This document shows positions 5,232-60,566 of a DNA stretch of 64,000 nucleotides, in pieces. Under the pieces are notes generated by a model, which did not search any database, was not told the DNA's origin, and saw only the letters and a program-made list of their open reading frames with translations. Within the stretch, counting starts at the first letter, position 1. Every line of letters begins with the position of its first letter. The stretch is from an uncultured Gammaproteobacteria bacterium. GTDB lineage: Bacteria > Patescibacteriota > Patescibacteriia > UBA1558 > 2-01-FULL-52-15. The stretch is taken from positions 234,982 through 298,981 of the forward strand of contig CAYOCJ010000002.1 in the NCBI GenBank assembly GCA_964402565.1, in the 5' to 3' direction. The translations under genes and the position numbers were made by a program.

Positions 5232-5306
5232 GGCCCTATCATCTAATGGTTAGGATATCAGGTTTTCATCCTGGAAATCGGGGTTCGATTCCCCGTAGGG
5301 CTACCA
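5232..5306 (+). tRNA. tRNA-Glu: tRNA-Glu (anticodon TTC), CCA encoded
   Basis: Cloverleaf folds by hand. Acceptor GGCCCTA/TAGGGCT with a G1-U72 wobble. T-arm CGGGG-TTCGATT-CCCCG. Anticodon arm TCAGG-TTTTCAT-CCTGG with TTC at positions 34-36. Discriminator A then CCA. Confidence 0.85.
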
Positions 5307-7995: not shown

Positions 7996-8483
7996 AAAAA
8001 AAGATAATCACGTACAGTGCTGCAGAAACGAAAAAACTTGGCATTGCTTTGGCTCGATCGCTGAAGCAGGGATGCGTGATCGCACTCATCGGCAACCTGG
8101 GGGCCGGGAAAACGGTTCTGACAAAAGGCATAGCCAAAGGTCTGAAAGTAAACCACGTGATCCAGAGTCCGACCTTTGTATTAATGAAGGTCTATCCCCT
8201 GAAACACAAGACGCTTTCAGCTTTGGTGCATGTCGATTGCTATCGCGTCTCATCTCCGCAGGAACTGCATACGATAGGCTTAGAAGATTACATCCAAGAC
8301 AGCTCTGCAGTCGTTGTCATCGAATGGGCAGACAAGATGCGGTCAGCATTGCCCAAGCAGCGGATGACCATGACTATTGTGTCGCGCAAAGAAAAAGGAA
8401 GAGTGATCACGATTGACGATCGTCGTCCTGGTATTTCCAAAAGTAGTAGACGGCCACATATAATCCCAGGCTCCCGAGGATGA
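7992..8483 (+). CDS. tsaE: tRNA threonylcarbamoyladenosine biosynthesis ATPase TsaE
   Basis: ALIGNLGAGKTVLTKGIAKGL Walker A, SPTFVLMKVY, VVIEWAD motifs. ATGA overlap with tsaD. C-terminal ~20 aa is probably run-on to the first stop. Confidence 0.8.
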   Translation: MKKKIITYSAAETKKLGIALARSLKQGCVIALIGNLGAGKTVLTKGIAKGLKVNHVIQSPTFVLMKVYPLKHKTLSALVHVDCYRVSSPQELHTIGLEDYIQDSSAVVVIEWADKMRSALPKQRMTMTIVSRKEKGRVITIDDRRPGISKSSRRPHIIPGSRG

Positions 8484-29151: not shown

Positions 29152-30468
29152 ATGAATCAAATCAGACCGGACACGCGGAAACCGGTGAAAGCCTCGGAGC
29201 TCGCCGGTATGGCGGGACGGTGTGTCGAGGTTACCGGCTTTGTCCATCAGATCCGTAAGGTCGGTGGACTCCACTTCGTACTTCTCAGGACCAATGACTC
29301 GGTGATTCAGTGCACCAACGAGCCTGCGGAGAGCACGGTTGATCCTGCTCGCTACACGGTCGGCAACTATGTTGTTGTTCGCGGTGTCGTGAGAGCTGAA
29401 GAGCAGGCCCGTCATGGGGCCGAAATCGTGCTCAGCGAAATCGATGTGCTGACTTTGCCGACAGCTTTGCCGCCGTTCGCTCTCAACAAGAAGGAACTTA
29501 AAGCCGAACTGGGGGCTATACTGGACTATCGTCCGGTCAGTCTCCGCCACTCGAAGCAGCGGGCAATCTTCAGAGTCCAGGCAGCTCTGGCTCAGCTGTT
29601 TCGCGAAGCACTGCTCGCAGTTGGGTTCACCGAGATCCATTCACCCAAAATCGTCTTCGCTGGAGCCGAAGGCGGCGCAAACGTCTTTAAGCTCGACTAC
29701 TTCGGGGAGACGGTCTGTCTTGCACAGAGCCCACAGTTCTACAAGCAGATGATGGTCGGGGTTTATGGCCGAGTGTGCGAGATCGGGCCTGTTTTCAGGG
29801 CTGAGAGCCACTCGACATCGCGCCATCTGAATGAGTACATGTCGCTCGACTTGGAGATGGGACCGATTGCAGGTTTCACGGATGTCATGGCGGTCGAGGC
29901 ATATGTCATTCAGCACATGCTTTCTCGGATCAGCGAGCTGTGTCCGCAGGAACTGGAGTTGCTCGAAGCGAAGGTTCCGAAGATCGAGTCGATTCCCGCC
30001 ATAAGGATGTCCGAAGCGCTTGATATCGTCGGCAGATCCAGAACCGAGTATGATCGGACGGATCTTGACGCTGAGGGCGAACGGCTCGTCTGTGGGCATG
30101 TACAGGAACAGACCGGAAGCGAATTTGTCTTCGTGACCCACTATCCGCGGTCGAAGCGGCCGGTCTACGCCATGGACGATCCCGAGGATCCGGAGCTGAC
30201 ACTCAGTTTCGACTTGCTCTTCAGGGGGCTCGAGATCACGACTGGTGGCCAGCGGATTCACGGGTACGACGAGCAGGTTCAGAAGCTCAAAGATTTTGGC
30301 ATGAAGCCAGGCCAATTCGAGAGCTTCCTGCTCATGCACAAGCACGGCATGCCGCCGCACGGCGGCCTCGCCATCGGACTGGAACGCCTGACGATGCTTC
30401 TGCTGGGACTGTCCAGCGTCAAGGAGACGAGTCTCTTCCCGAGGACCGTCGATCGCATCACACCGTAG
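29152..30468 (+). CDS. aspS: Aspartate--tRNA ligase, archaeal/eukaryotic type (AspRS2-like), in a GC-rich insert
   Basis: 438 aa. N-terminal OB fold (VEVTGFVHQIRKVGGLHFVLLR), QSPQFYKQ aspartate-recognition motif, motif 2 FRAESHSTSRHLNEY, motif 3 GMPPHGGLAIGLERL, C-terminal ...LFPRTVDRITP. Collinear with Pyrococcus/Thermococcus AspRS over its whole length. Local GC clearly above backbone. Confidence 0.85.
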   Translation: MNQIRPDTRKPVKASELAGMAGRCVEVTGFVHQIRKVGGLHFVLLRTNDSVIQCTNEPAESTVDPARYTVGNYVVVRGVVRAEEQARHGAEIVLSEIDVLTLPTALPPFALNKKELKAELGAILDYRPVSLRHSKQRAIFRVQAALAQLFREALLAVGFTEIHSPKIVFAGAEGGANVFKLDYFGETVCLAQSPQFYKQMMVGVYGRVCEIGPVFRAESHSTSRHLNEYMSLDLEMGPIAGFTDVMAVEAYVIQHMLSRISELCPQELELLEAKVPKIESIPAIRMSEALDIVGRSRTEYDRTDLDAEGERLVCGHVQEQTGSEFVFVTHYPRSKRPVYAMDDPEDPELTLSFDLLFRGLEITTGGQRIHGYDEQVQKLKDFGMKPGQFESFLLMHKHGMPPHGGLAIGLERLTMLLLGLSSVKETSLFPRTVDRITP

Positions 30469-30487: not shown

Positions 30488-30524
30488 CAGGGGCAGCCTG
30501 CGTGGTTGCCCCTGTTTCTTTTTC
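30488..30524 (+). terminator. Rho-independent terminator after aspS
   Basis: aggggca-N11-tgcccct followed by GTTTCTTTTTC. Confidence 0.55.
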
Positions 30525-30537
30525 AAATGAACCAGCG

Positions 30538-30546
30538 TGGTATAAT
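30538..30546 (+). promoter_or_regulatory. Extended -10 promoter element (TGgTATAAT) for the paralog-B operon, near-leaderless
   Basis: gtggtataat about 14 nt upstream of ATG 30560. No SD. Confidence 0.4.
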
Positions 30547-30559
30547 AACGTAACTAAAT

Positions 30560-31669
30560 ATGAAATTAGGACCGTACATCACACAAGATAACAAGATTGC
30601 ATATCGAGGAAACAAAGTACGCAAAGGTCTTTCAGAAGTACGGAATATAAAACCGCGGGGTCTTGAAAAGCGTCACATTGAACTGAAGCATGATGCGCGT
30701 TACTGGCCGGCGGCCATGAAAATCTGGGACGGAACGTATCAGTCGGTTAACGAGTTTATGAAATCGGACAAAGCCCTTTTGTTTGATCTTCCGGTTACTA
30801 CCAGGATGATCTCATCGCCGGGTGCTCTGACCGGAACCATTCCTTCTGATGTGCATCCCTTCCGGATAAAGATGTTTGGCAAGGAGGTATTTCTTACCCA
30901 GTCCTCACAGTTTTATCTTGAATTTGCGATAACCAATCCCGCCGTTAAGAAGACATACTGCTGGGAAAAGAGTTTCCGGCGCGAGCGGGCTGATTTTCGT
31001 CACCTGCCGGAATTTCATCATATCGAATATGAGGCACGCGGTAATCTGAAAAGCATTATCGATACCCAGACGCGGTTTATACAGTATTTGATCGCGTATT
31101 TACTGAAGCATCATCGCCGCGATCTCTCGGTATTCCTTGATGCAGCGGAAATCAGAAACCTGCAAAAACTGTCGCAGCTTAAGAAGTTTGAACAGATTAC
31201 CTTTGAAGACGCGTTCGCCAAATTGTATGAGGCTACCGGGCTGCTGCGATACCGGAAGCCATCAATTAAGCACTTTACTGCGTATGAGGAAATTCTGCTG
31301 ACAGAGATTATCGGAAAACCGGTATTTGTAACGCACTATATCAGCGATGAAGTTGCGTTCTATCATCAGAATGATCCACGCAATAAAAAGCTGGTATTGA
31401 ATGCAGATTTTCTGTATCCTGGGTACGGAGAGCTGATCGGGAGCGGCGAGCGTATACATACGCGGGATCAGATACGAAAGAAAGCACGGCACTTTGAGCT
31501 GAACATGAAGGATTATAAGCCGTATATCGAATCAAGATCAGTCTCAGGAGTGACTGTGCACAGTGGCTTTGGCATGGGGATGGAGCGATTCGTACAGGCG
31601 GTCCTTCACCTGCCATTTATATGGGACGCCAAGCCCTTTGCACGAGTTGATGGATTTAATTATCCGTAA
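30560..31669 (+). CDS. AspRS/AsnRS catalytic-core paralog lacking the anticodon-binding domain (AsnA / AS-AR-like aspartyl-adenylate-forming enzyme)
   Basis: 369 aa. Class II core only: FLTQSSQFYLE (QSPQ-type Asp motif), motif 2 FRRERADFRHLPEF, GSGERIH, motif 3 GFGMGMERFV. No N-terminal OB fold. Host-like GC. Confidence 0.7.
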   Translation: MKLGPYITQDNKIAYRGNKVRKGLSEVRNIKPRGLEKRHIELKHDARYWPAAMKIWDGTYQSVNEFMKSDKALLFDLPVTTRMISSPGALTGTIPSDVHPFRIKMFGKEVFLTQSSQFYLEFAITNPAVKKTYCWEKSFRRERADFRHLPEFHHIEYEARGNLKSIIDTQTRFIQYLIAYLLKHHRRDLSVFLDAAEIRNLQKLSQLKKFEQITFEDAFAKLYEATGLLRYRKPSIKHFTAYEEILLTEIIGKPVFVTHYISDEVAFYHQNDPRNKKLVLNADFLYPGYGELIGSGERIHTRDQIRKKARHFELNMKDYKPYIESRSVSGVTVHSGFGMGMERFVQAVLHLPFIWDAKPFARVDGFNYP

Positions 31670-31673
31670 ATAT

Positions 31674-32714
31674 ATGTTTAAGAAACTAAATAAACCACCA
31701 CGACTGAAGGAGGGCGATACCATTGGTCTTATCAGTCCTTCGGCGCCCCTGGCCGGTCTAGTCCCGCACCGGACGGATCGTGCTGTGGCTATGCTGGGAG
31801 GGTTGGGATTTAACGTTCTTGTGGCGAAAAACAGTAAAAAGATTACTGACTATACTGCTGCATCACCGGAAGAACGTGCAGAGGATATTCATGAGATGTT
31901 TTCAAATGACGATGTAAAGGCAGTCATCTGCTTTATAGGCGGGGATCACAGTAATCAGATTCTGCCTCATATCGATTTTGATTTGATCAGAAAGAATCCG
32001 AAAATATTTATCGGGTACTCAGATCCGACGGTTCTGCATTTTGCATTTCTTACTGCCGGTAAGATGGTTAGCTTCTATGGTCCGTCGGCTTTGGTTCAGT
32101 TTGCTGAGAATCCAAAAGTGCTTCCATATACACTGGAATACTTCAAAAAAGCAGTTATGAGCACGGATCCGGTTGGCCCTGTTATGCCATCGGAGCAGTG
32201 GACGGACGAAGTGCTAGACTGGTTTGAAAAAAAGGATCTTGAGCGACCACGCAAGATGAACAGCAACCCAGGGTGGAAGTGGATTCAGTCCGGTAAAGCA
32301 GAGGGGCCGATTATCGGTGGCTGTCTTTCATCGGCCATGCATCTTAAAGGAACAAAGTACTGGCCGGAACTGCAGGGATCAGTTTTCTTCTTCGAAACCT
32401 CTGAGCGGAGCAGTGATTTTACTAAGGGGCAGGAGATGGCTGATATAGATGCTGATCTCGCAGATCTTAAGAATATGGGAGTATTTGAAAAAATCAGCGG
32501 TTTGATTGTTGGTCGTCCCTTTGGGCTCGGCAATGAGGAGTGTGAAAAGTTTATGGAGCTGATTACGTCGTACACGAAACCTTATTCATTCCCTGTTCTT
32601 ACGGGTGTTGATGTTGGCCATACCGATCCGATGATTACCGTACCGCTCGGAACGAACGTTTCGCTGGATTCAGAAAAAAATGAATTTAGCTTTAATGAGT
32701 CCGGCGTCAGATGA
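31674..32714 (+). CDS. Peptidase S66 family protein (LD-carboxypeptidase LdcA / microcin C immunity MccF family)
   Basis: GDTIGLISPSAP N-terminus, Ser nucleophile in IFIGYSDPTVLH, His in VDVGHTDPMITVPLG. In-frame upstream alternatives (31650 ATG, 31563) overlap the previous gene. Confidence 0.75.
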   Translation: MFKKLNKPPRLKEGDTIGLISPSAPLAGLVPHRTDRAVAMLGGLGFNVLVAKNSKKITDYTAASPEERAEDIHEMFSNDDVKAVICFIGGDHSNQILPHIDFDLIRKNPKIFIGYSDPTVLHFAFLTAGKMVSFYGPSALVQFAENPKVLPYTLEYFKKAVMSTDPVGPVMPSEQWTDEVLDWFEKKDLERPRKMNSNPGWKWIQSGKAEGPIIGGCLSSAMHLKGTKYWPELQGSVFFFETSERSSDFTKGQEMADIDADLADLKNMGVFEKISGLIVGRPFGLGNEECEKFMELITSYTKPYSFPVLTGVDVGHTDPMITVPLGTNVSLDSEKNEFSFNESGVR

Positions 32715-33079
32715 AAAAAGAAGAAAACGAGGCAGTAACCGGCACACATGTTATCGGTGAGGTCTACACCGGGGATGTTTCAACGCTGAATGGACTTTCT
32801 GATATAGAGAATAAAATACTGAATATTGTGAAGAAGAATAAGCTTCAGAGCCTTCATTCTTTTTTTTATCTTTTTCCTGAAGGAGGATTTACGGGCATGA
32901 TATCACTGGTTGAGTCTCATATATCGCTGCACACATGGCCTGAATATAAGTATCTCACGCTGGATGTTTATCTCTGTGACTACTCACGTGATAACTCCAA
33001 GACAGCGGAAGTGGTATTTGCTGAGATTGCTGAACTCTTCAGCCCGTCGCGTATAACAAAGCAGGTAATGAAACGGTAA
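32711..33079 (+). CDS. speH: S-adenosylmethionine decarboxylase proenzyme, small pyruvoyl type (SpeH/SpeD class)
   Basis: 122 aa. THVIGEVYTGD...FFYLFPEGGFTGMISLVESHISLHTWPEYKYLTLDVYLCD matches the AdoMet_dc family including the ES processing site. ATGA overlap with the upstream gene. Confidence 0.75.
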   Translation: MKKEENEAVTGTHVIGEVYTGDVSTLNGLSDIENKILNIVKKNKLQSLHSFFYLFPEGGFTGMISLVESHISLHTWPEYKYLTLDVYLCDYSRDNSKTAEVVFAEIAELFSPSRITKQVMKR

Positions 33080-33080
33080 T

Positions 33081-33884
33081 ATGTCAGTATCAAAGAAGGA
33101 TATAGAACAACTGTCATATGTCGAGCTCATGGCTTTTCTGGATGAGGTAAACCGTCCGCCCGGGGGTAAGGACTCAGTGAGGCGCGTTGTGCAAAATACC
33201 TTTCTCACACCATCATCCAAAGCTCTCGACGTTGGTTGTAATACCGGATATGTTACTTTTGAAATCGCACATCTTGTTGGTTGTAAGGTTACCGGGCTAG
33301 ATATCGACTCATCAATGATAAAGACTGCGGAGAAAAACCGAAAGAAGGACACGCATGCACAATTAATCAGTTTCAGAAAAGGCGATGCAATGCGGCTGCC
33401 GTTTAAGACCCGTACATTCGATTTGGTTATGTCAGGAGGATCGACTGCCTTTGTCGATGATAAAATAAATGCTATTAAGGAATATAAAAGGGTAACAAAG
33501 CAGTGGGGTTTTGTAGCAGACGTGAATTTTTTCTATCACACAAAACCGCCGGCAATACTTTTGAAAAAATTGAATGCGTTACTGGACATTAACATCCAGC
33601 CCTGGGACAAGTCGTACTGGCTGAAGATATATGAAGGAGCAGACCTAGAGCCGTATTATGAATACGAGGGTAAGATGAGCAAGGTATCGAATAGACAGGT
33701 GAGCGAATACTGCGATGCGATGATCAGGCACAGAAAGCTTAATCCGGCAGTAAAGAAGATAATGTACGCACGCTTATCCGAAGCTATGACGTTGTTTAAC
33801 GAAAATCATAAGTATCTTGCTTATGGTGTCTTTGTGTACAGAAACAGACCTGAGAAAGAGCAGGTTTCTTTATTTGGTGCATAA
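33081..33884 (+). CDS. Class I SAM-binding methyltransferase-fold enzyme with ~110-aa C-terminal extension (not SpeE-like)
   Basis: ALDVGCNTGYVTFEIA motif I, VTGLDIDSSMI post-I, FDLVMSGG motif II. Lacks the spermidine synthase GGGDGG / DSTDP motifs. Starts 1 nt after the speH stop. Confidence 0.65.
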   Translation: MSVSKKDIEQLSYVELMAFLDEVNRPPGGKDSVRRVVQNTFLTPSSKALDVGCNTGYVTFEIAHLVGCKVTGLDIDSSMIKTAEKNRKKDTHAQLISFRKGDAMRLPFKTRTFDLVMSGGSTAFVDDKINAIKEYKRVTKQWGFVADVNFFYHTKPPAILLKKLNALLDINIQPWDKSYWLKIYEGADLEPYYEYEGKMSKVSNRQVSEYCDAMIRHRKLNPAVKKIMYARLSEAMTLFNENHKYLAYGVFVYRNRPEKEQVSLFGA

Positions 33885-33889
33885 AATGA

Positions 33890-33916
33890 AGAGAGGTTCC
33901 GTTTTGGAACCTCTCT
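33890..33916. terminator. Convergent hairpin (11-bp stem) between the methyltransferase and paralog-C genes
   Basis: agagaggttcc-gtttt-ggaacctctct. Contains the stop codon of the minus-strand gene. T-rich on the minus side. Confidence 0.45.
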
Positions 33917-35213
33917 AGAGAAGGTCGCTGCGCGCGTCTCTGGGGAACAGGATCGTCTCCCTGATATGCGGCAGACCGAGAATGAGTTGTATCAGACGCT
34001 CGATGCCAATGCCTACGCCGGACATTGGCGGCAGCGCATGGCGCACCGCGTTAATGTAGAGAGGGAAGTTGCCAGGGTCCAGTCCGCGTAACTGCATCCT
34101 CGTGAGTAATTCAGTCAGGTCGGTGACGCGTTCGGCGCCGTCGGCGATGTCGGTTACCCGCGGGTGCCACAGCTGAAAGTCGAAGCAGGTCAGCCTGCCA
34201 CCGACGTCTCTGGCTCGTGAGTAGAAGGCTTTTGATTCCGCGGCTTGGTCGATGATCCAGAAGAAGGAACCGAAGCGTTTCCTGATTGCTAAGAGAGCGT
34301 TTTTAGGCACGGTTGAGGTTGAACCCCATTCCAGATCTACGCCCCCACTGTTCAGATAGGAGACCAGATCGCTGTATGTGATTACCTCGAAGTTTCTCAG
34401 GTCATCAAAGCTTACTTCCAGTAGCGCCAGTTCATCAGCGCATGAGCCGGATACTTCATCCAGGATGCAGTTGATCATCAAGTTGATCATACGGATCATG
34501 TCATCACGGTCCGCGTACGCGGAGGTGATATCCAGTACCGTGAACTCGCTTAGGTGAATGCTGGTATGTGACTTGGTCGCCCGGAAGCACGACCCGATCT
34601 CGTACACCCGGTCCAGGTTGCCGCCGAGAACTGCCATGTGGTACAGCATGTTGCTGAGCGACAGGTAGGCCTTTCGGCCAAAGTAGTCGACCGGAAATGC
34701 TTCTACCGGGCCCTCAACGGATTCACCCACGATGCTTGGTGAGGAAACCTCAACGAATCGCTGAGTGGTAAGAAAGTCCCGGATCGCTTTGAGCACCGCG
34801 CTCTTTACCCGGAAGATTGCAGTCACCCGGGGGTTTCTGAGATCCAGGTGCCTGTTCTGCAGGCGAAGCACGCGTGCAGTCGTGGAGTCGATGCTCGGGG
34901 GCGTTTCATCCGGTTCGGTCAGCACCTCGATACCGGCAAGGCCGAGTTCATATCCGAGAATACCGGATTTTACGATCTTATTGGAGCGGAATATTCCGTC
35001 TGCGACGATCACTGACCCTTTTTGAGGAACAGCCATGGCTGGGCTGTCGATGACACACTGGATGCATCCTGCGGGTGTCACCAGATTCAGAAACGTAAGG
35101 CTCTTTCCTGCTTTTCTGATCTGCTGAACCCGGCCGGTAAACCGGACGTGCTTGTCGGCAAATTGAGGCGGATTCAGGAAACACCGCCTCATCTCTTCTA
35201 TGAGACTGATCAC
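33915..35213 (-). CDS. Divergent AspRS/AsnRS-family paralog, full length with OB fold but substituted motif 2 (GC-rich insert)
   Basis: 432 aa. GTG start with AAGGAGA SD 5 nt upstream. OB fold VRFTGRVQQIRKAGKSLTFLNLV. Core reads YLSLSNMLY (in place of QSPQ), motif 2 FRATKSHTSIHLSEF (Glu to Thr, Arg to Ile versus FRAE..RHL), motif 3 GVGIGIERLIQLILGLPHIRETILFPRD. High GC. Confidence 0.75.
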   Translation of the reverse strand: MISLIEEMRRCFLNPPQFADKHVRFTGRVQQIRKAGKSLTFLNLVTPAGCIQCVIDSPAMAVPQKGSVIVADGIFRSNKIVKSGILGYELGLAGIEVLTEPDETPPSIDSTTARVLRLQNRHLDLRNPRVTAIFRVKSAVLKAIRDFLTTQRFVEVSSPSIVGESVEGPVEAFPVDYFGRKAYLSLSNMLYHMAVLGGNLDRVYEIGSCFRATKSHTSIHLSEFTVLDITSAYADRDDMIRMINLMINCILDEVSGSCADELALLEVSFDDLRNFEVITYSDLVSYLNSGGVDLEWGSTSTVPKNALLAIRKRFGSFFWIIDQAAESKAFYSRARDVGGRLTCFDFQLWHPRVTDIADGAERVTDLTELLTRMQLRGLDPGNFPLYINAVRHALPPMSGVGIGIERLIQLILGLPHIRETILFPRDARSDLL

Positions 35214-35293
35214 GGCGTTTCTCCTTGTGAAGGTACGGGGTTATTGGAACTTTGTAATTTATGAAATTTTAGCACTTATGTCAATGATCGTAT

Positions 35294-36155: not shown

Positions 36156-36737
36156 ATGAAATTATTTACTGACATCAGCAAGGAACTGAAAGAGTATGAG
36201 AAAGCGCGTGAATCCGTGATCCGCGTTTCACGAGAGTATCTCACTGCTTCGAAAAGCATCATTTTCCTTTGTCATGAGAATAAACTTGATGAAGCTCTGC
36301 GGCAGCTTTCATTGCTCACGAAAAATATGATAGCCAGTGAGCGCGACTTGAAAAAGGCTTTACTCAAAGCGCAAAAAACTTTTTCACTGTATGAAGAAGG
36401 TTCATGGAATTCAGCAGTCGAAGAATATCTCGAGGCCTGGTTTTTCTGTCAGTTTTTGAAAATTGGTAAACTTGCGGCACCAAAAATCAATCCTCCGGCT
36501 CATATCTATATCGGCGCACTTTCTGATTTTACCGGAGAAGTCGTGCGTCGTGCAGTTCTGAAAGGCGCGGATAAGGATGTGAAGACGCTTGAAAAGTATC
36601 GCAAGGTCATTGCGGAAGTTGTTGCATTCATGATGCCTTTGTATCTCACAGGACAGAATAGACAGAAATTCGATCAGGCGAAAAGAAACCTCAAGTCAGT
36701 GGAGGAAATTTTGTACGAGGTAAAGATACGGATGTAG
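36156..36737 (+). CDS. Translin-family protein (putative)
   Basis: 193 aa all-helical. C-terminal motif YIGALSDFTGEVVRRAV fits the translin/TRAX Y-x2-G-x2-D-x2-GE-x2-R signature. Length similar to archaeal translins. Confidence 0.5.
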   Translation: MKLFTDISKELKEYEKARESVIRVSREYLTASKSIIFLCHENKLDEALRQLSLLTKNMIASERDLKKALLKAQKTFSLYEEGSWNSAVEEYLEAWFFCQFLKIGKLAAPKINPPAHIYIGALSDFTGEVVRRAVLKGADKDVKTLEKYRKVIAEVVAFMMPLYLTGQNRQKFDQAKRNLKSVEEILYEVKIRM

Positions 36738-48336: not shown

Positions 48337-51300
48337 ATGGGTGAACCATTAATGCCAGGAGGAGGGGTCCATGATCCAGAGCGAAAGCCTTCCGGCGTTG
48401 ATCCGGATAGAGAATCTCCCGTAAACGATCTGGGGGCAGATGATGCACCTCATCTTACTGTTGAACGCCCGCCCCAGGACTCTGATCACGCAGCTCTGGA
48501 TGATGCGGCAGGAAGTTTAGAGTTGAACGAGTATGAAAATGATTTTTATGCTGGCTTGCCCGCTGAAGGCGGCTTGCCTGACATAGTCGATTTTTTGAGC
48601 TCCTGGAGTCACCCGGTCATCGATGAAACAGGAAAATCCTTTACGTCCCAGGAGATAGCCTCAACTATGCTCGAAATCGAGACCTATTTGAAGGGTAGTC
48701 CCAAGGCGACTCCCGCTGACGAAAATTTGAAAGCATTGCTTGACCGCATTCCCACCTATGGCGCTTTGAAGGCGACAGTATATAATCGTCTAGACTTTGC
48801 ATTACCGATTCCTGATGACGCAGTACTGACAAATCCTGACGCAATGCCAGCTGCCGCAAAGCCCGCAGATGATCCAGCAACCCCTGACACTCCAGCCTCA
48901 CCTGATGCTGGCGCAACTTCTGACACAGCGACTCCTGATGCTCAATCATTGCCCGATGAAGCTTCAAAAACTGGCTCACCTGCAGCACCAGATGCCGCTA
49001 CCGCTGATTCACCTGATGTGCCGCTGGTAGCGCCGACACCGCCAGTTGAAACTCCTCCGGATGCCGCTGAAGGTAAACCAGATGATGCAGGCGAACTGGA
49101 ACCGGAATTAGTTTTTGAGTCGGGTGACTCGCTTGTCGAAGAAAAAATTGGAGAGCGGACTATCATTGGTGCTTTTAATACACGCGAAGGCGGATACAAT
49201 GTAACAAGATACCAAAAGACCGGTAAGCGGGATCATTATGTCTTGAAGGAGGACATGATACGCCAGATGCTCTCAGGCCAGCGGAAAGAAGGTACGTGGA
49301 AATTTGAAAAGAAAGGAGCGCAAGCAGCTGACACAAGACCTGACGAACCAAAGGGTCCGGACGCGCCTGTCGATGCGCCGCCGATAGATGCGCCTGATGG
49401 AAAAGGCGCAGAGCCCAAAACTGACGACGCGCCCAAAGGACCTGAAACACCCGTACCAGTAGAACCAAAAACCCCTGATGCGCCAGGCGATGGTAAGCCG
49501 CCGGCCGGAGATCCGAAGCCTGAGCCTAAATCCGAACCAAAACCTGAACAACGGGATGATATTTTTAAGGAGGAGAACTTGCTCAAAGAGCTGGAGCTTT
49601 TTGGCATAAGCAAAGCCGATATGGAAAAGGTAGAGGGGTATGCAGGCTTGTCACTGGGACAAAAGTGGGTGATGCTTGAGAATTTCAAACAGTCAGCAGT
49701 CGGCCGTATCCATGAGGACTCCGCTCGTTCGCTGCAAATGAAAACGTCGAAAGCAGCTATACCAAAGAGGCTCTGGATGGCAATCGTACAACCATATTTT
49801 CTTTCGAAGGAGCGGAAAGCTCAAGCAAGCGCGATAGAAAAAGGAGGCATAGCGGAGCACGGAGAAACACTCATGGCTCTGGCGCAGGGCATGGCAGAAT
49901 TCGGCCCTGAAGTTGCGATCGTGGATGGCGCTCTAGAGACGCAATTCATAAACACGAAAGAGATAGTAGATTTTGAGAAGATGAGTGATGAAGAGAAAGA
50001 AATTATCTCAGAATATAATCATTCTGCGAATTCCTTTTCAATGACACCCTATGAATGGTCATTATCTACTGCTTCTGGCTCAGAGCGCAGAAAATATGCT
50101 CGGGCTGAAAAGATGTTCATAGAAGCGCGCGATGCTTTGCGGTTAGCCAATGCAGCGCGAGTGGAAGATCAAAAAAAGCCGACCATGGATATTTTTGGAG
50201 CTGACGAACAAGTGCGATTGCAGCAAATGCTGAACCAGCATCAGGATGTGGAGCAGACATTACTCGATATAAAATCTGACCGCAGCTGGAAGCCGGTCTT
50301 GAAAACCATGGCTTCAGCTTCTGGGAAAGGACTGTATTTCGCCGGTGGCTTCGCTGCAAGAAGTGCTGCTGTCGGCCTGCTGGGCACCTTGGGAGCGCCG
50401 GTTATGGCGGCCGGGATTGGCGGCATCAATGGATGGCTAAGGAGCAAAAAAGAGCTGCTCGAACAGGATCGTTTGGCACGAAAAGGCTTGGTGACCAATA
50501 AAGAAACAGCCCGCAACGTGGTGGCCGCGGATAAGGTTATTGAGAAAAAAGCCAAGGAAGGTGAAGAACAGATGAAGGAAATTCCGGTTGGTTTGTCCAA
50601 TAAACTTGATGCATTGATGGCACGCATTGCCCAAGCACCAGACGGCTCGGATGAAAAAAAGAAATTGATGGTTTCTCTGAAAGCGCGCATGGATTATACC
50701 GATACCAAGATCAATAACGGTTTGGTTTCATTCGGCACTGGTGCAGAATCTATTGCGGGTAAATTCTCGCTTGCAGAATCGCTTGCGAAAGCGAACATGG
50801 TCCTTGAGATCGAAAAGCCAAATGCTGAAGTTGTGCAGTCATTGAATACTAGAATTGACCGATACCTGGCACGGGCTGACAAGAAAATAGATCAAAAGCG
50901 CTGGGAGTATACAAAAAAGAATATAAAGAAAGGCGCTTTGTGGGCTGGCATTATTTCGGGCGCTGGTGTCGGCACGAGAGCGATCGCCGAGCACTATCAT
51001 TGGCTCGATGGCGCCACGGCTTGGGCGAAAGACCATATGCCGTTCCGCGGAGGACATGCGCACCCGCATTATGAGGCAACACCGGTTACGCCAGGTTCTG
51101 AACCGTATGTGCCTACAACGCTTGATACCCATGATTACCTGCATGACGCAGAGGTGCTGCACACCCATCCTGAGTGGGAAGGTATTGCGCCGGATGCAGC
51201 GACGCAGGGCGTTGCGAATGACGGAAGTGTTGAAGCTATGGTGCATGAGGCAGTCGCAAAATCAGCTGCAGAGAGTGTTCCAGCTGTCCATGTAGAAATT

Positions 51301-52302
51301 CATGAGGGTGAAGGAATGATCAAAGCATTGACCCGCAGCCTCGAAGAGCAGCATCACCTGGATCATGAGAAAGCGGCCGAGCTTGCAAATCAGCTCTATG
51401 TATCTGATGCTGACAGGATGTACGACTTGGTACATGCCGGAGATACATTCGATATTAACCTGAAGGACGTTCATGATCTGGATTTTTACACCAAGAGCGC
51501 TGCAGAGCTTGCGAAGTCGGCCGATTATGATCCGTCACATTTCGAAAGCGCGAGCGGCATAGAACCTCAGATGGATCTGCCAGATATAGCGCATCACGCT
51601 GAAATACCTGCTGCGACACCAGATCATGCGGTGCATGCGGTTGATCTCAATGCAGCAAAAAATGCACCTCATTTCGCGAACGCTGCTACGGAAAAGTATT
51701 TTTCTGATCACGGAGTCCGCTATGACCAGGAAACAGGTAATTTATTTTTCAATCACGACAATCACATTTTGACGTACCGGATAAAAGATCACCTCGCAGG
51801 CTACGATAATACACTTTCAGTCGATACGGACGGCAATTATCATTTGACTCAGACTGACGGACACTCGACGCGGGTATTTTCTTTTGACAAGGACGGGCAG
51901 ATCCTGCCGTCCGCATCACCGCATGTCGAACAGCCGATAGCGCCAAAGGCGCCGGAAAATTTCAACAATTCATTGGTAGTCGAGGGTAGAGGAGCTGCTA
52001 AATTGCTCGATAGAAAGATGTCTATGAATAAAATGCTCGATTATCTGGAGTCGACGCATCCCGGCCTTCATAAAAAACTCGATGCCATGTCTGCACTTGA
52101 GGCAGCAGGCAGGAAGGGCGCATTTGTGAAGCACCTGGAATCTGCCCTTGGCATCACCAAATCTGAAGCTAGTAAATTGGCTAAACCGATCCGGTTCATT
52201 TTCGAACACGCTGAAAAAGGTTTTAAAGCCGGAGGCGAACCGCTTGAGTCTGATGATACGATCGGAGCAACATTGGACCGCCTCAAACTGGAAGTAAAAT
52301 AG
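48337..52302 (+). CDS. Giant hypothetical protein (1321 aa) with Pro/Asp/Ala-rich low-complexity N-terminal third, central Gly-zipper hydrophobic segments and His-rich C-terminal half
   Basis: Single uninterrupted ORF. No N-terminal signal peptide seen. Hydrophobic GLYFAGGFAARSAAVGLLGTLGAPVMAAGIGGINGWL and ALWAGIISGAGVGTRAI segments. HAHPHYE / HTHPEWE / HHLDHEK His clusters. Confidence 0.7.
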   Translation: MGEPLMPGGGVHDPERKPSGVDPDRESPVNDLGADDAPHLTVERPPQDSDHAALDDAAGSLELNEYENDFYAGLPAEGGLPDIVDFLSSWSHPVIDETGKSFTSQEIASTMLEIETYLKGSPKATPADENLKALLDRIPTYGALKATVYNRLDFALPIPDDAVLTNPDAMPAAAKPADDPATPDTPASPDAGATSDTATPDAQSLPDEASKTGSPAAPDAATADSPDVPLVAPTPPVETPPDAAEGKPDDAGELEPELVFESGDSLVEEKIGERTIIGAFNTREGGYNVTRYQKTGKRDHYVLKEDMIRQMLSGQRKEGTWKFEKKGAQAADTRPDEPKGPDAPVDAPPIDAPDGKGAEPKTDDAPKGPETPVPVEPKTPDAPGDGKPPAGDPKPEPKSEPKPEQRDDIFKEENLLKELELFGISKADMEKVEGYAGLSLGQKWVMLENFKQSAVGRIHEDSARSLQMKTSKAAIPKRLWMAIVQPYFLSKERKAQASAIEKGGIAEHGETLMALAQGMAEFGPEVAIVDGALETQFINTKEIVDFEKMSDEEKEIISEYNHSANSFSMTPYEWSLSTASGSERRKYARAEKMFIEARDALRLANAARVEDQKKPTMDIFGADEQVRLQQMLNQHQDVEQTLLDIKSDRSWKPVLKTMASASGKGLYFAGGFAARSAAVGLLGTLGAPVMAAGIGGINGWLRSKKELLEQDRLARKGLVTNKETARNVVAADKVIEKKAKEGEEQMKEIPVGLSNKLDALMARIAQAPDGSDEKKKLMVSLKARMDYTDTKINNGLVSFGTGAESIAGKFSLAESLAKANMVLEIEKPNAEVVQSLNTRIDRYLARADKKIDQKRWEYTKKNIKKGALWAGIISGAGVGTRAIAEHYHWLDGATAWAKDHMPFRGGHAHPHYEATPVTPGSEPYVPTTLDTHDYLHDAEVLHTHPEWEGIAPDAATQGVANDGSVEAMVHEAVAKSAAESVPAVHVEIHEGEGMIKALTRSLEEQHHLDHEKAAELANQLYVSDADRMYDLVHAGDTFDINLKDVHDLDFYTKSAAELAKSADYDPSHFESASGIEPQMDLPDIAHHAEIPAATPDHAVHAVDLNAAKNAPHFANAATEKYFSDHGVRYDQETGNLFFNHDNHILTYRIKDHLAGYDNTLSVDTDGNYHLTQTDGHSTRVFSFDKDGQILPSASPHVEQPIAPKAPENFNNSLVVEGRGAAKLLDRKMSMNKMLDYLESTHPGLHKKLDAMSALEAAGRKGAFVKHLESALGITKSEASKLAKPIRFIFEHAEKGFKAGGEPLESDDTIGATLDRLKLEVK

Positions 52303-59756: not shown

Positions 59757-59833
59757 ATATGGTTATAAGCTTTCGTTCATTTCCATTTTCCCGCATGCCT
59801 TGAGCATGTGGCGTATGTAACAAGGAGCTAGCG

Positions 59834-60421
59834 ATGAAATCCGTCAGAGAGTTGATCTCGATCATCAAGGCCGAGCTTGCTGTCATGCAGACTCTGTTCC
59901 CGCCGATTTCGGTGGGGCCCGTCCGCTGCGACGGTTTCACGGCCGAAGAACTGGAACTCGCGTTCCAGACCGAGGCGATGTATGTGAGTACGTTGCACGA
60001 ACGCGAGCAGCGAGAGCTGCGCGAGAAGAGCGCCAAGAAGCTCGAGCGCATCCTGGCCAGCCTCCGTCAGCGGAAGAACAACTTCCTGTCGCGGATGGCC
60101 CAGGCCTTCGCCGTGAAGGCCGAGCGGATCAACGTCTACGACATGGCGAAGTACTACGGTCTCGGGGACGACGAGGAAGCACAGCAGCAGTGGCAGATCA
60201 TGAAAGCTTCGCTCGCGGTGATCCTGAAGATCAACAACCTGCTCGTCACGAAAGACATGCCGGCCAAGGCGAGGCTCGAAGCCGCGTCGGTGCTGTACCA
60301 CGAAGGCCTCAACGAGGTCGCCGGTCTCCGCGATCGGTTCGAGCGGTACTGCGTCGGTCGGATGCAGGCTGTGCAGCTGCTCCGAGCTTTCGACATGCCG
60401 GACAACCGCCAGGTCGCTTAA
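59834..60421 (+). CDS. Hypothetical protein (195 aa), first gene of GC-rich cassette
   Basis: Uninterrupted ORF in 60%+ GC DNA with good SD. Helical, acidic, no motif. Confidence 0.6.
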   Translation: MKSVRELISIIKAELAVMQTLFPPISVGPVRCDGFTAEELELAFQTEAMYVSTLHEREQRELREKSAKKLERILASLRQRKNNFLSRMAQAFAVKAERINVYDMAKYYGLGDDEEAQQQWQIMKASLAVILKINNLLVTKDMPAKARLEAASVLYHEGLNEVAGLRDRFERYCVGRMQAVQLLRAFDMPDNRQVA

Positions 60422-60443
60422 CAGCGGCCACGAGGAGCCTGTC

Positions 60444-60566
60444 ATGACTTCCAGATCCATTTTCGGAGCGATCCTCATCCTCGCAGGTACCCTCGCGGGT
60501 TACCTGTTCCACTCAAACCACGTGAGCCGCAAGGCTCAGGCAGTCAAGGTCTCGGCCAAGAACTGA
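60444..60566 (+). CDS. Small single-TM peptide (40 aa)
   Basis: GAGGAG SD 6 nt upstream. MTSRSIFGAILILAGTLAGYLFHSNHVSRKAQAVKVSAKN. Confidence 0.4.
   Translation: MTSRSIFGAILILAGTLAGYLFHSNHVSRKAQAVKVSAKN

Follow-up and report, generated by a model that had tools for sequence, protein, structure and literature searches.

What does the catalytic core of an aminoacyl-tRNA synthetase do at the head of an operon whose other genes encode a peptidase, a decarboxylase and a methyltransferase-like enzyme? The question is raised by a gene in a 64 kb stretch of the 513-kb contig CAYOCJ010000002.1 (assembly GCA_964402565.1), the whole of which is called here the window. A preliminary description had regarded the 369-aa product of this gene, hereafter the core, as the core of an aspartyl-tRNA synthetase (AspRS) resembling the asparagine synthetases AsnA and AS-AR. 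Our analysis suggests that the core more likely helps to make a poison of tRNA synthetases than asparagine, and that it is the constant, signature gene of an apparently undescribed cluster widespread in ultra-small bacteria, archaea and some cultured microbes. On balance, we favour the view that it carries out the adenylation step of a pathway that is ThiF-independent and leads to an aminopropylated aminoacyl-nucleotide, which would inhibit a tRNA synthetase, with immunity built into the same cluster. This view starts from domain identities, conserved catalytic residues, the homology of two partners to MccD and MccF, and gene linkage, all of them observed directly. The genes concerned are as follows:

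29152..30468, plus strand: AspRS1, an archaeal-type non-discriminating AspRS (498 bits, cutoff 353)
30560..31669, plus strand: core gene, a stand-alone catalytic core derived from asparaginyl-tRNA synthetase (AsnRS) as judged by sequence, class II catalytic residues all intact
31674..32714, plus strand: S66 serine peptidase of the MccF clade, with Ser (GYSD), His (GHTDP), Glu (FFETSE) and the Trp186 equivalent kept
32711..33079, plus strand: pyruvoyl-dependent S-adenosylmethionine decarboxylase (AdoMetDC), with an ESH self-cleavage site (TIGR03330, 86.9 bits, cutoff 75.65)
33081..33884, plus strand: MccD-family enzyme of class I methyltransferase fold, whose best solved relative is MccD
33915..35213, minus strand: AspRS2, a full-length degenerate AspRS paralog, convergent with the methyltransferase gene

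The core open reading frame (ORF) and its ATG start were confirmed as real. The start codon is correct, since the N-terminus aligns from its first residues with homologs of about 370 aa, and with 269 database relatives the feature is far beyond chance. The nearest named relatives belong to bacteria of the Candidate Phyla Radiation (CPR), and public records name the homologs ‘asparagine-tRNA ligase’ or ‘amino acid-tRNA ligase-related protein’. The position of the core as first gene of a tight operon of four, as initially described, is borne out by the junctions: the core stop at 31669 lies 4 nt before the S66 start at 31674, the S66 and AdoMetDC genes share an ATGA overlap at 32711, and 1 nt separates AdoMetDC from the methyltransferase start at 33081. 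Two AspRS genes flank the operon.

How constant are these partners? Scanning one genome per species with the family alignment yielded 80 loci, where a single-protein query had found none. Close relatives of the core (48-61% identity) occur in CPR bacteria, DPANN archaea and one Myxococcales metagenome-assembled genome (MAG). Distant relatives of equal length (31-40%) come mostly from Woesearchaeota and Nanoarchaeota, and further ones from Natrinema gari, N. altunense, Haloarcula regularis, Actinomadura miaoliensis, a Paenibacillus MAG and a Microcoleus MAG. Partners within 6 kb were counted at the 55 loci where 5 kb or more of sequence follows the core, without correction for phylogeny:

MccD-like gene: close relatives 12/12, distant 34/43, all 46/55
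S66 gene: close relatives 11/12, distant 30/43, all 41/55
Any of S66, HIT or S51: close relatives 11/12, distant 38/43
Second synthetase or synthetase-like gene: close relatives 8/12, distant 33/43

The MccD-like gene is thus the most constant partner, while the remainder of the neighbourhoods is unrelated between loci. In L003, a Berkelbacteria locus, the four genes recur in unchanged order amid different surroundings. A housekeeping AsnA orthologue with freely varying partners was the outcome named beforehand as telling against a special role; the opposite was found, the partners being strongly conserved.

HIT genes are commoner where S66 is absent (7/14 loci vs 4/41; Fisher p = 0.003, likewise uncorrected for phylogeny). 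Besides S66, two further classes of hydrolase are known from publications to confer resistance to microcin C, namely HIT (MccH) and S51 (MccG) (PMC7157772, PMC9239234). A protein of about 325 aa (cluster 5, no Pfam match) often accompanies HIT in the loci without S66. Five related loci carry, instead of AdoMetDC, pyridoxal phosphate (PLP)-dependent decarboxylases of the Orn/Arg type, which we take to have the fold of MccE1. Together with an Mrp/ParA-like ATPase and an APH-type kinase, such a decarboxylase adjoins the core in L028, L053 and L068; of this trio, L014 has the ATPase and the kinase only. Radical SAM enzymes and AsnC-type regulators also recur near the core. In two Natrinema loci, a DrrA-type ABC ATPase and an ABC-2 permease lie between core and S66; in the Haloarcula locus, which yielded no S66, an exporter pair of the same two gene clusters is located about 4.5 kb away from the core (exporter loci L072:11135-12951, L073 and L075). 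Finally, in the Myxococcales MAG, an 807-aa in-frame fusion joins a full-length class IIb synthetase, including the OB-fold region, to an S66 domain (L018:4580-7003), about 2.6 kb downstream of the core homolog.

From which synthetase does the core come? Its sole Pfam domain is PF00152 (tRNA-synt_2; residues 36-362, E 2.9e-35), which leaves about 35 residues ahead of the catalytic domain. As had been claimed, an OB fold is missing: there is no PF01336 match, and the AlphaFold2 (AF2) model (pLDDT 85, pTM 0.87) shows a class II core after two short hairpins and a helix, with no OB domain. The first 19 Foldseek matches of this model are all AsnRS. Among NCBIfam models, AsnRS ranks first (187 bits), before non-discriminating AspRS (112) and four archaeal AsnA models (86-102). 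The scores stay far below the cutoffs of the models, whether for AsnRS (equivalog; NF003037, 187.3 vs 414; TIGR00457, 162.6 vs 342.6), for archaeal AsnA/AS-AR (NF005052-NF005055, 86-102 vs 309-389) or for EpmA (TIGR00462, 22.9 vs 286.9; NF006828, 21.8 vs 264). In the PDB, a 24-sequence profile matches AsnRS of Thermus (167 bits) and Pyrococcus (160), and AspRS at no more than 94; matches to the solved AS-AR structures reach 62-65 bits and are confined to the C-terminal 90 or so residues. Since the best NCBIfam, PDB-sequence and fold matches are all AsnRS, and the diagnostic residues described below are of AsnRS type, the sequences place the origin of the core in AsnRS, not AspRS. Of the original label, the class IIb core and the missing anticodon-binding domain stand, and the AspRS parentage does not. 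Kinship with AsnA and AS-AR, for which a profile comparison had been proposed, fails on the scores just given, on the absence of a PF03590 match and on the C-terminal-only structure matches, and membership of that family can be discarded. The accompanying suggestion that the core may pass an activated acyl group to acceptors other than ammonia is still viable.

The motifs quoted in the preliminary description (motif 1 region, QSSQ, motif 2 and GFGMGMERFV) are all present. The motif 1 proline is P78, the QSSQ loop (residues 114-117) is of AsnRS type where the adjacent AspRS genes have QSPQ, motif 2 is FRRERADFRHLPEF (residues 139-152) and motif 3 GFGMGMERFV (336-345). We compared 74 family members with six outgroups (four AsnRS-type, two AspRS genes neighbouring such clusters). 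R140, E142, H148, E151, F152, E156, E158, D283, E291, R298 and motif 3 are invariant in 74/74, and the discriminating residues of the core are of AsnRS type: L120 (Lys in AspRS), E121, H154, E156 (Asp in AspRS), Y319 and R326. Yet, in a family where motifs 1-3 and most AsnRS-type pocket residues are invariant, the flipping-loop Glu that is invariant in the six outgroups is Ser (Ser86) in all 74. In class IIb enzymes this Glu contacts the alpha-amino group of the substrate, and the motif-2 loop contacts the tRNA acceptor end. The latter loop is one residue shorter than in the outgroups and carries Asp145 in 99% of the 74 members, where the outgroups have Lys, Arg, Ser or Asn. A family-specific inserted loop, TTRMISSPGALTGTIPSDVHPF, contains the conserved residues G92, D97 and P100. 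From these residues we infer that the core would still adenylate an Asn-like substrate but would no longer handle a free alpha-amine and tRNA in the canonical way.

The partner genes resemble those that tailor microcin C and confer immunity to it. The S66 peptidase matches structures of the MccF clade (MccF-like protein of Bacillus anthracis 209 bits, E. coli MccF 187) far better than murein LD-carboxypeptidases of the LdcA type (only 41-93 bits). These scores, and its linkage in wall-less DPANN and in haloarchaea, led us to reject a housekeeping LD-carboxypeptidase of murein recycling. Alignment with E. coli MccF shows that the Ser-His-Glu triad is conserved together with the equivalent of Trp186, the residue that in MccF stacks on the adenine of processed microcin C (PMC8323819). 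The window methyltransferase finds MccD as its first PDB match (5fcd, 75 bits; next 52), and a profile of 29 cluster methyltransferases matches MccD at 135 bits over its full length, whereas generic methyltransferases match the Rossmann core only. MccD moves the 3-amino-3-carboxypropyl group of S-adenosylmethionine (SAM) onto the microcin C phosphoramidate, and MccE1 decarboxylates it to aminopropyl (PMC8323819); the functions of MccD, MccE1, MccF, MccH and MccG are described in PMC8323819, PMC7157772 and PMC9239234. AdoMetDC, non-homologous to MccE1/MccE, could fill their decarboxylase role by functional equivalence. It could either supply decarboxylated SAM for direct aminopropyl transfer or decarboxylate the transferred group, with the same decoration as a result. 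A PADLOC scan of the operon proteins gave no defence-system match, only that of a generic methyltransferase to mad2.

The synthetase genes around the core form the most variable part of the clusters. In the window, AspRS1 and AspRS2 are the most GC-rich genes of the neighbourhood (57.3%, z = +2.3, and 55.4%, z = +1.8; gene mean 48.2%, operon genes 41-46%), pointing to separate and perhaps horizontal origins. Among 5.8 billion proteins, only six relatives of AspRS2 were found, and all those with inspected surroundings sit beside a core/S66/MccD-like cluster (L055, L087, L089). All seven proteins of this type have lost QSPQ, Lys198, the motif-2 Glu, the loop Arg, both Mg ligands and the second acidic residue after motif 2; they retain the motif-2 Arg, motif 3 and the N-terminal domain. 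Because ligands of ATP, Mg and Asp are gone, they can hardly activate aspartate with ATP, and AspRS2 is, on its residues, a predicted pseudo-synthetase found only in such clusters. L089 reproduces the window architecture (AspRS, S66, core, AdoMetDC, MccD-like, then a convergent AspRS2-like gene), with accessory genes 41-56% identical to those of the window and a core only 33% identical. Elsewhere the second synthetase takes other forms:

ProRS-like: 226 bits vs cutoff 558, without editing insertion
LeuRS-like: 277 bits vs cutoff 677, without CP1
LysRS-like: 280 bits vs cutoff 468
MetRS-like: 197 bits vs cutoff 587
Other forms: HisRS-like, split AlaRS, true AsnRS and the AspRS2 type

For most of these neighbours, scores far below cutoff, missing editing domains or lost catalytic residues speak against ordinary housekeeping genes, an idea that we rejected. 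AspRS1 of the window and, in Natrinema, a full-length LeuRS directly upstream (1043 bits) do exceed their family cutoffs. A full-length AsnRS, canonical-looking in its motifs, adjoins the core in L037, L050 and L056 and lies about 1 kb downstream in L058. An AsnRS paralog with QSWQFYAEN for QSAQLYLE recurs in the DPANN clusters L037 and L050; the L050 protein, the only AsnRS-type neighbour scored against NCBIfam, is above the AsnRS cutoff (437 bits vs 414). Three consecutive class IIb synthetase genes lie upstream of the L050 core.

To which known system do these clusters come closest? With microcin C they share an MccD-family transferase, a putative decarboxylation step toward aminopropyl and an MccF-clade S66 with triad and Trp186; the related loci add HIT and S51 hydrolases, and the window locus carries genes for AspRS, the target of the microcin C warhead. 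The differences are as clear. In the screened parts of the window, neither a ThiF/E1-like MccB nor a detectable MccA was found, so that the cluster is not a canonical mcc cluster, and an AsnRS-fold enzyme stands in the place of the nucleotide-forming enzyme. The window decarboxylase is a pyruvoyl AdoMetDC where MccE1 depends on PLP, the window cluster has no MccC exporter and no MccE2 acetyltransferase, and the hosts of such clusters are CPR, DPANN, haloarchaea and actinobacteria.

A second parallel is offered by ascamycin. There, AcmF is an AlaRS-like protein without ATP-binding residues that holds a nucleoside sulfamate in its adenylate pocket and acylates the sulfamate NH2 from Ala-tRNA supplied by the AlaRS-like AcmD, a reaction reversed by the hydrolase AcmE (PMC12945691). 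The trio of AspRS1, AspRS2 and S66 is reminiscent of AcmD/AcmF/AcmE (and of SbzA of SB-203208) in combining a real synthetase, a degenerate paralog and a hydrolase, and AspRS2 may by analogy be an AcmF-type transferase. The window paralogs are, however, class IIb and AspRS-type instead of AlaRS-type, the presumed scaffold is a phosphoramidate instead of a sulfamate, and the constant AsnRS-like core has no counterpart in the acm cluster. By analogy, then, the cluster comes nearest to a cross between the tailoring and immunity set of microcin C and the AcmD/AcmF/AcmE logic. Agrocin 84 and phosmidosine, two natural N-acyl phosphoramidate nucleotides, imitate Leu-AMP or Pro-AMP, and a truncated LeuRS-like gene has been reported on the agrocin plasmid together with a resistant LeuRS. 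In general description, this arrangement resembles the LeuRS- and ProRS-like paralogs of the related loci. Our literature search found no description of a phosmidosine gene cluster and, in full text, none of the core family or its cluster.

As for the core itself, AS-AR (PDB 1nnh, 3p8t) and bacterial AsnA are likewise stand-alone class IIb cores of the Asp/Asn synthetase lineage without anticodon-binding domain. The core exceeds the solved AS-AR chains (294 residues) by about 75 residues, has a conserved extension at its N-terminus besides the family-specific loop, and lies in a conserved context that is mcc-like, not housekeeping. Its closest relative in sequence and fold is AsnRS of the archaeal/eukaryote type (about 30% identity), with which it has in common QS(S/A)QLYLE, E-x-E, GxGE..G..R and motif 3. 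From AsnRS it differs by the missing OB fold, the Ser for the flipping-loop Glu, the inserted loop and the shorter, acidic motif-2 loop.

How could such a protein take part in the synthesis of a toxin? What is consumed, what is made and which way each step runs are all inferred. The core would not act on tRNA; it would bind Asn and ATP in its AsnRS-type pocket and build a nucleotide with an N-P (phosphoramidate) bond. Two versions can be envisaged. The core might make from Asn, by MccB-like chemistry, an aspartamide-adenylate poisonous to AspRS, which fits the two AspRS genes of the window. Alternatively, it might only supply the phosphoramidate nucleotide, to be acylated by an AcmF-like pseudo-synthetase; in that case, the differing second synthetases of the clusters would be accounted for. 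The MccD-like enzyme and AdoMetDC would then put an aminopropyl group on the phosphate, and the MccF-like S66 would hydrolyse the aminoacyl-N bond for self-protection. AspRS1 would charge tRNA-Asp and the degenerate AspRS2 transfer the aminoacyl group, in the manner of AcmD and AcmF; as an alternative, the AspRS pair could serve as target bypass or decoy.

Extending the second version, a combinatorial pathway can be proposed more tentatively, as a possibility that we consider less probable than not. In this scheme, set in the ultra-small CPR and DPANN symbionts and in a number of free-living bacteria and archaea, the constant core would make the N-P nucleotide from Asn and ATP, the MccD-like enzyme and the decarboxylase would aminopropylate it, and a variable degenerate synthetase would load its own amino acid, with S66, HIT or S51 as immunity. 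The AspRS2-, ProRS-, LeuRS-, LysRS-, MetRS-, HisRS- or AlaRS-like paralog would act on the nitrogen as AcmF does, so that each cluster would poison a different tRNA synthetase. The product could be a weapon of episymbionts or a device to control their hosts.

Several observations weigh against a toxin pathway led by the core. We know of no AsnRS-fold enzyme that forms an N-P bond. No MccB/ThiF homolog was found in the operon or in the roughly 30 window genes scanned with Pfam, a screen that covered about two thirds of the 64 kb (the cluster itself occupying 29.1-35.3 kb), nor was an MccB-type gene found among the recurrent neighbour clusters of related loci. An exporter of MccC type was not found in the window cluster. 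Short ORFs ending in Asn are not enriched upstream of the core (13/318 forward, 13/213 reverse), although in L003 one of 7 codons, MILIYKN, ends 7 nt before the core gene (just upstream of position 8001 of that locus); a heptapeptide ending in Asn is the format of the microcin C precursor. The variety of ProRS-, LeuRS-, LysRS-, MetRS-, HisRS-like and AlaRS paralogs fits poorly with a single product mimicking Asp-AMP, AdoMetDC could merely serve polyamine synthesis, and the co-occurrence counts carry no phylogenetic correction. Moreover, every partner with known homologs, MccD excepted, has an immunity function in the known system.

The immunity functions of the partners make a pure resistance island the main rival. 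Against foreign antibiotics that mimic aminoacyl-adenylates, the hydrolases would destroy the toxin, the extra synthetases would bypass it or act as a sponge, a role open to the degenerate AspRS2, and the core would be a decoy or salvage a breakdown product. S66, HIT and S51 are indeed the three known hydrolytic classes of microcin C resistance, most of whose homologs are stand-alone resistance genes (PMC8323819, PMC7157772, PMC9239234), and the lack of MccB and exporter in the screened parts of the window and of Asn-ending short ORFs upstream of the core would be as expected. However, a decoy needs none of the catalytic residues, and every one is kept in the 74 core members. The most constant partner is the MccD-like gene, yet MccD-type enzymes and decarboxylases are tailoring functions that raise toxicity and block MccH (PMC8323819, PMC7157772, PMC9239234), and haloarchaeal clusters contain ABC exporters of antibiotic type. 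We therefore hold resistance alone to be unlikely.

Somewhat less probable again is an asparagine synthetase of AsnA/AS-AR type, which would adenylate Asp, transfer it to ammonia and supply Asn beside a non-discriminating AspRS. Such an AspRS does adjoin the core, and the architecture without anticodon domain is that of AS-AR, with weak matches to its models. Against this stand the large deficit to the AS-AR cutoffs, the absence of PF03590, structural matches confined to the C-terminus, and a pocket of AsnRS type in which Leu120 replaces the Lys that binds the Asp carboxylate. Supply of Asn gives no rationale for linkage to MccD, MccF and HIT, and family members are present in Natrinema, Haloarcula and Actinomadura too, within clusters that contain exporters. 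Slightly more doubtful still is a modifier of macromolecules in the manner of EpmA/PoxA or GluQRS, in which the core would aminoacylate either a protein or a base in RNA, and the same target would receive an aminocarboxypropyl or aminopropyl group from the MccD-like enzyme. Stand-alone synthetase cores that modify EF-P or tRNA are known precedents, the core has weak EpmA matches, and the acidic, shortened motif-2 loop speaks against binding of the tRNA acceptor, not of other macromolecules. But the score with the EpmA models is only about 22 bits (cutoffs 264-287), the neighbourhoods showed no conserved protein that could be the substrate, the traits of the MccF clade, among them the Trp that stacks on adenine, suggest a small molecule linked to a nucleotide, and some clusters have exporters. 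A truncated, genuine housekeeping AsnRS charging tRNA-Asn without its own anticodon-binding domain, suggested by several public records (‘asparagine-tRNA ligase’) and by the AsnRS-type pocket, is hardly credible given 187 bits against a cutoff of 414, the replacement of an outgroup-invariant Glu by Ser, an acidic motif-2 loop, canonical-looking AsnRS genes beside or near the core (L037, L050, L056, L058) and hosts with complete translation systems.

If the favoured toxin pathway is correct, it would represent a new enzymatic route to phosphoramidate/aminoacyl-nucleotide antibiotics, in which an AsnRS fold replaces the ThiF-like MccB; in its combinatorial form, it would amount to a non-ribosomal counterpart of microcin C that does without ThiF. 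A conserved pathway for a synthetase toxin and its immunity would be present in the genome-reduced CPR and DPANN, organisms commonly regarded as devoid of secondary metabolism, and hundreds of proteins labelled ‘asparagine-tRNA ligase’ or ‘amino acid-tRNA ligase-related protein’ would receive functions. The pseudo-synthetases (AspRS2, ProRS-, LeuRS- and LysRS-like) would form a family of transferases, maybe of AcmF type, useful for making aminoacyl-nucleotide inhibitors. The hypothesis is directly testable, as the cluster is present in the cultured strains Natrinema gari JCM 14663, N. altunense AJ2, Haloarcula regularis SYNS111 and Actinomadura miaoliensis JCM 16702.

How the operon is expressed in the window can be read in part from its borders:

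30488..30514, plus strand: intrinsic-terminator-like hairpin 5' of the operon (11 pairs, 8 of them GC, then a T-run)
30538..30546, plus strand: extended -10 element TGgTATAAT, as read from the sequence, ending 13 nt 5' of the core ATG
33890..33916, no strand assigned: hairpin where the convergent genes for the methyltransferase and AspRS2 meet, resembling a terminator when read on the minus strand
35256..35284, minus strand: sigma-70-like promoter match 5' of AspRS2 (TTGACA, 17-nt spacer, TAAATT), by consensus match only

As the upstream hairpin ends the AspRS1 transcript, the operon is a new transcription unit. A transcript starting from the -10 element would have a very short leader, and no Shine-Dalgarno (SD) sequence was found before the core ATG. 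The near-leaderless start, the extended -10 and the lack of SD thus stand as first read, but not as a peculiarity of this gene: among the 37 window genes surveyed, only 9 have an SD-like match of even 4 nt, and in many the ATG follows a TATA-like box at a distance of 5-15 nt. In the source genome, initiation without SD, from a short leader or none, seems to be the general pattern. An 8-codon ORF, MNQRGIIT (30527-30553), overlaps the operon promoter and was taken as chance because its last residue is Thr. An Rfam search gave a single match in the window, a tRNA at 5232-5303; near the operon it revealed neither a T-box nor a riboswitch nor any other RNA.

The window is bacterial, as judged from genes for a sigma-70 factor, FtsH, ribosomal protein S1, a PilB-type ATPase, UvrC and RNase J. 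Within this otherwise bacterial setting, positions 36156-36737 encode a protein of the Translin family (PF01997, E 2.9e-16). Farther downstream, a 1321-aa ORF (48337-52302) has no Pfam match at E <= 1e-5, and the ORF at 59828-60478, overlapped on the opposite strand by an ORF of 195 aa, has the highest GC content of the window (60.5%, z = +3.1).

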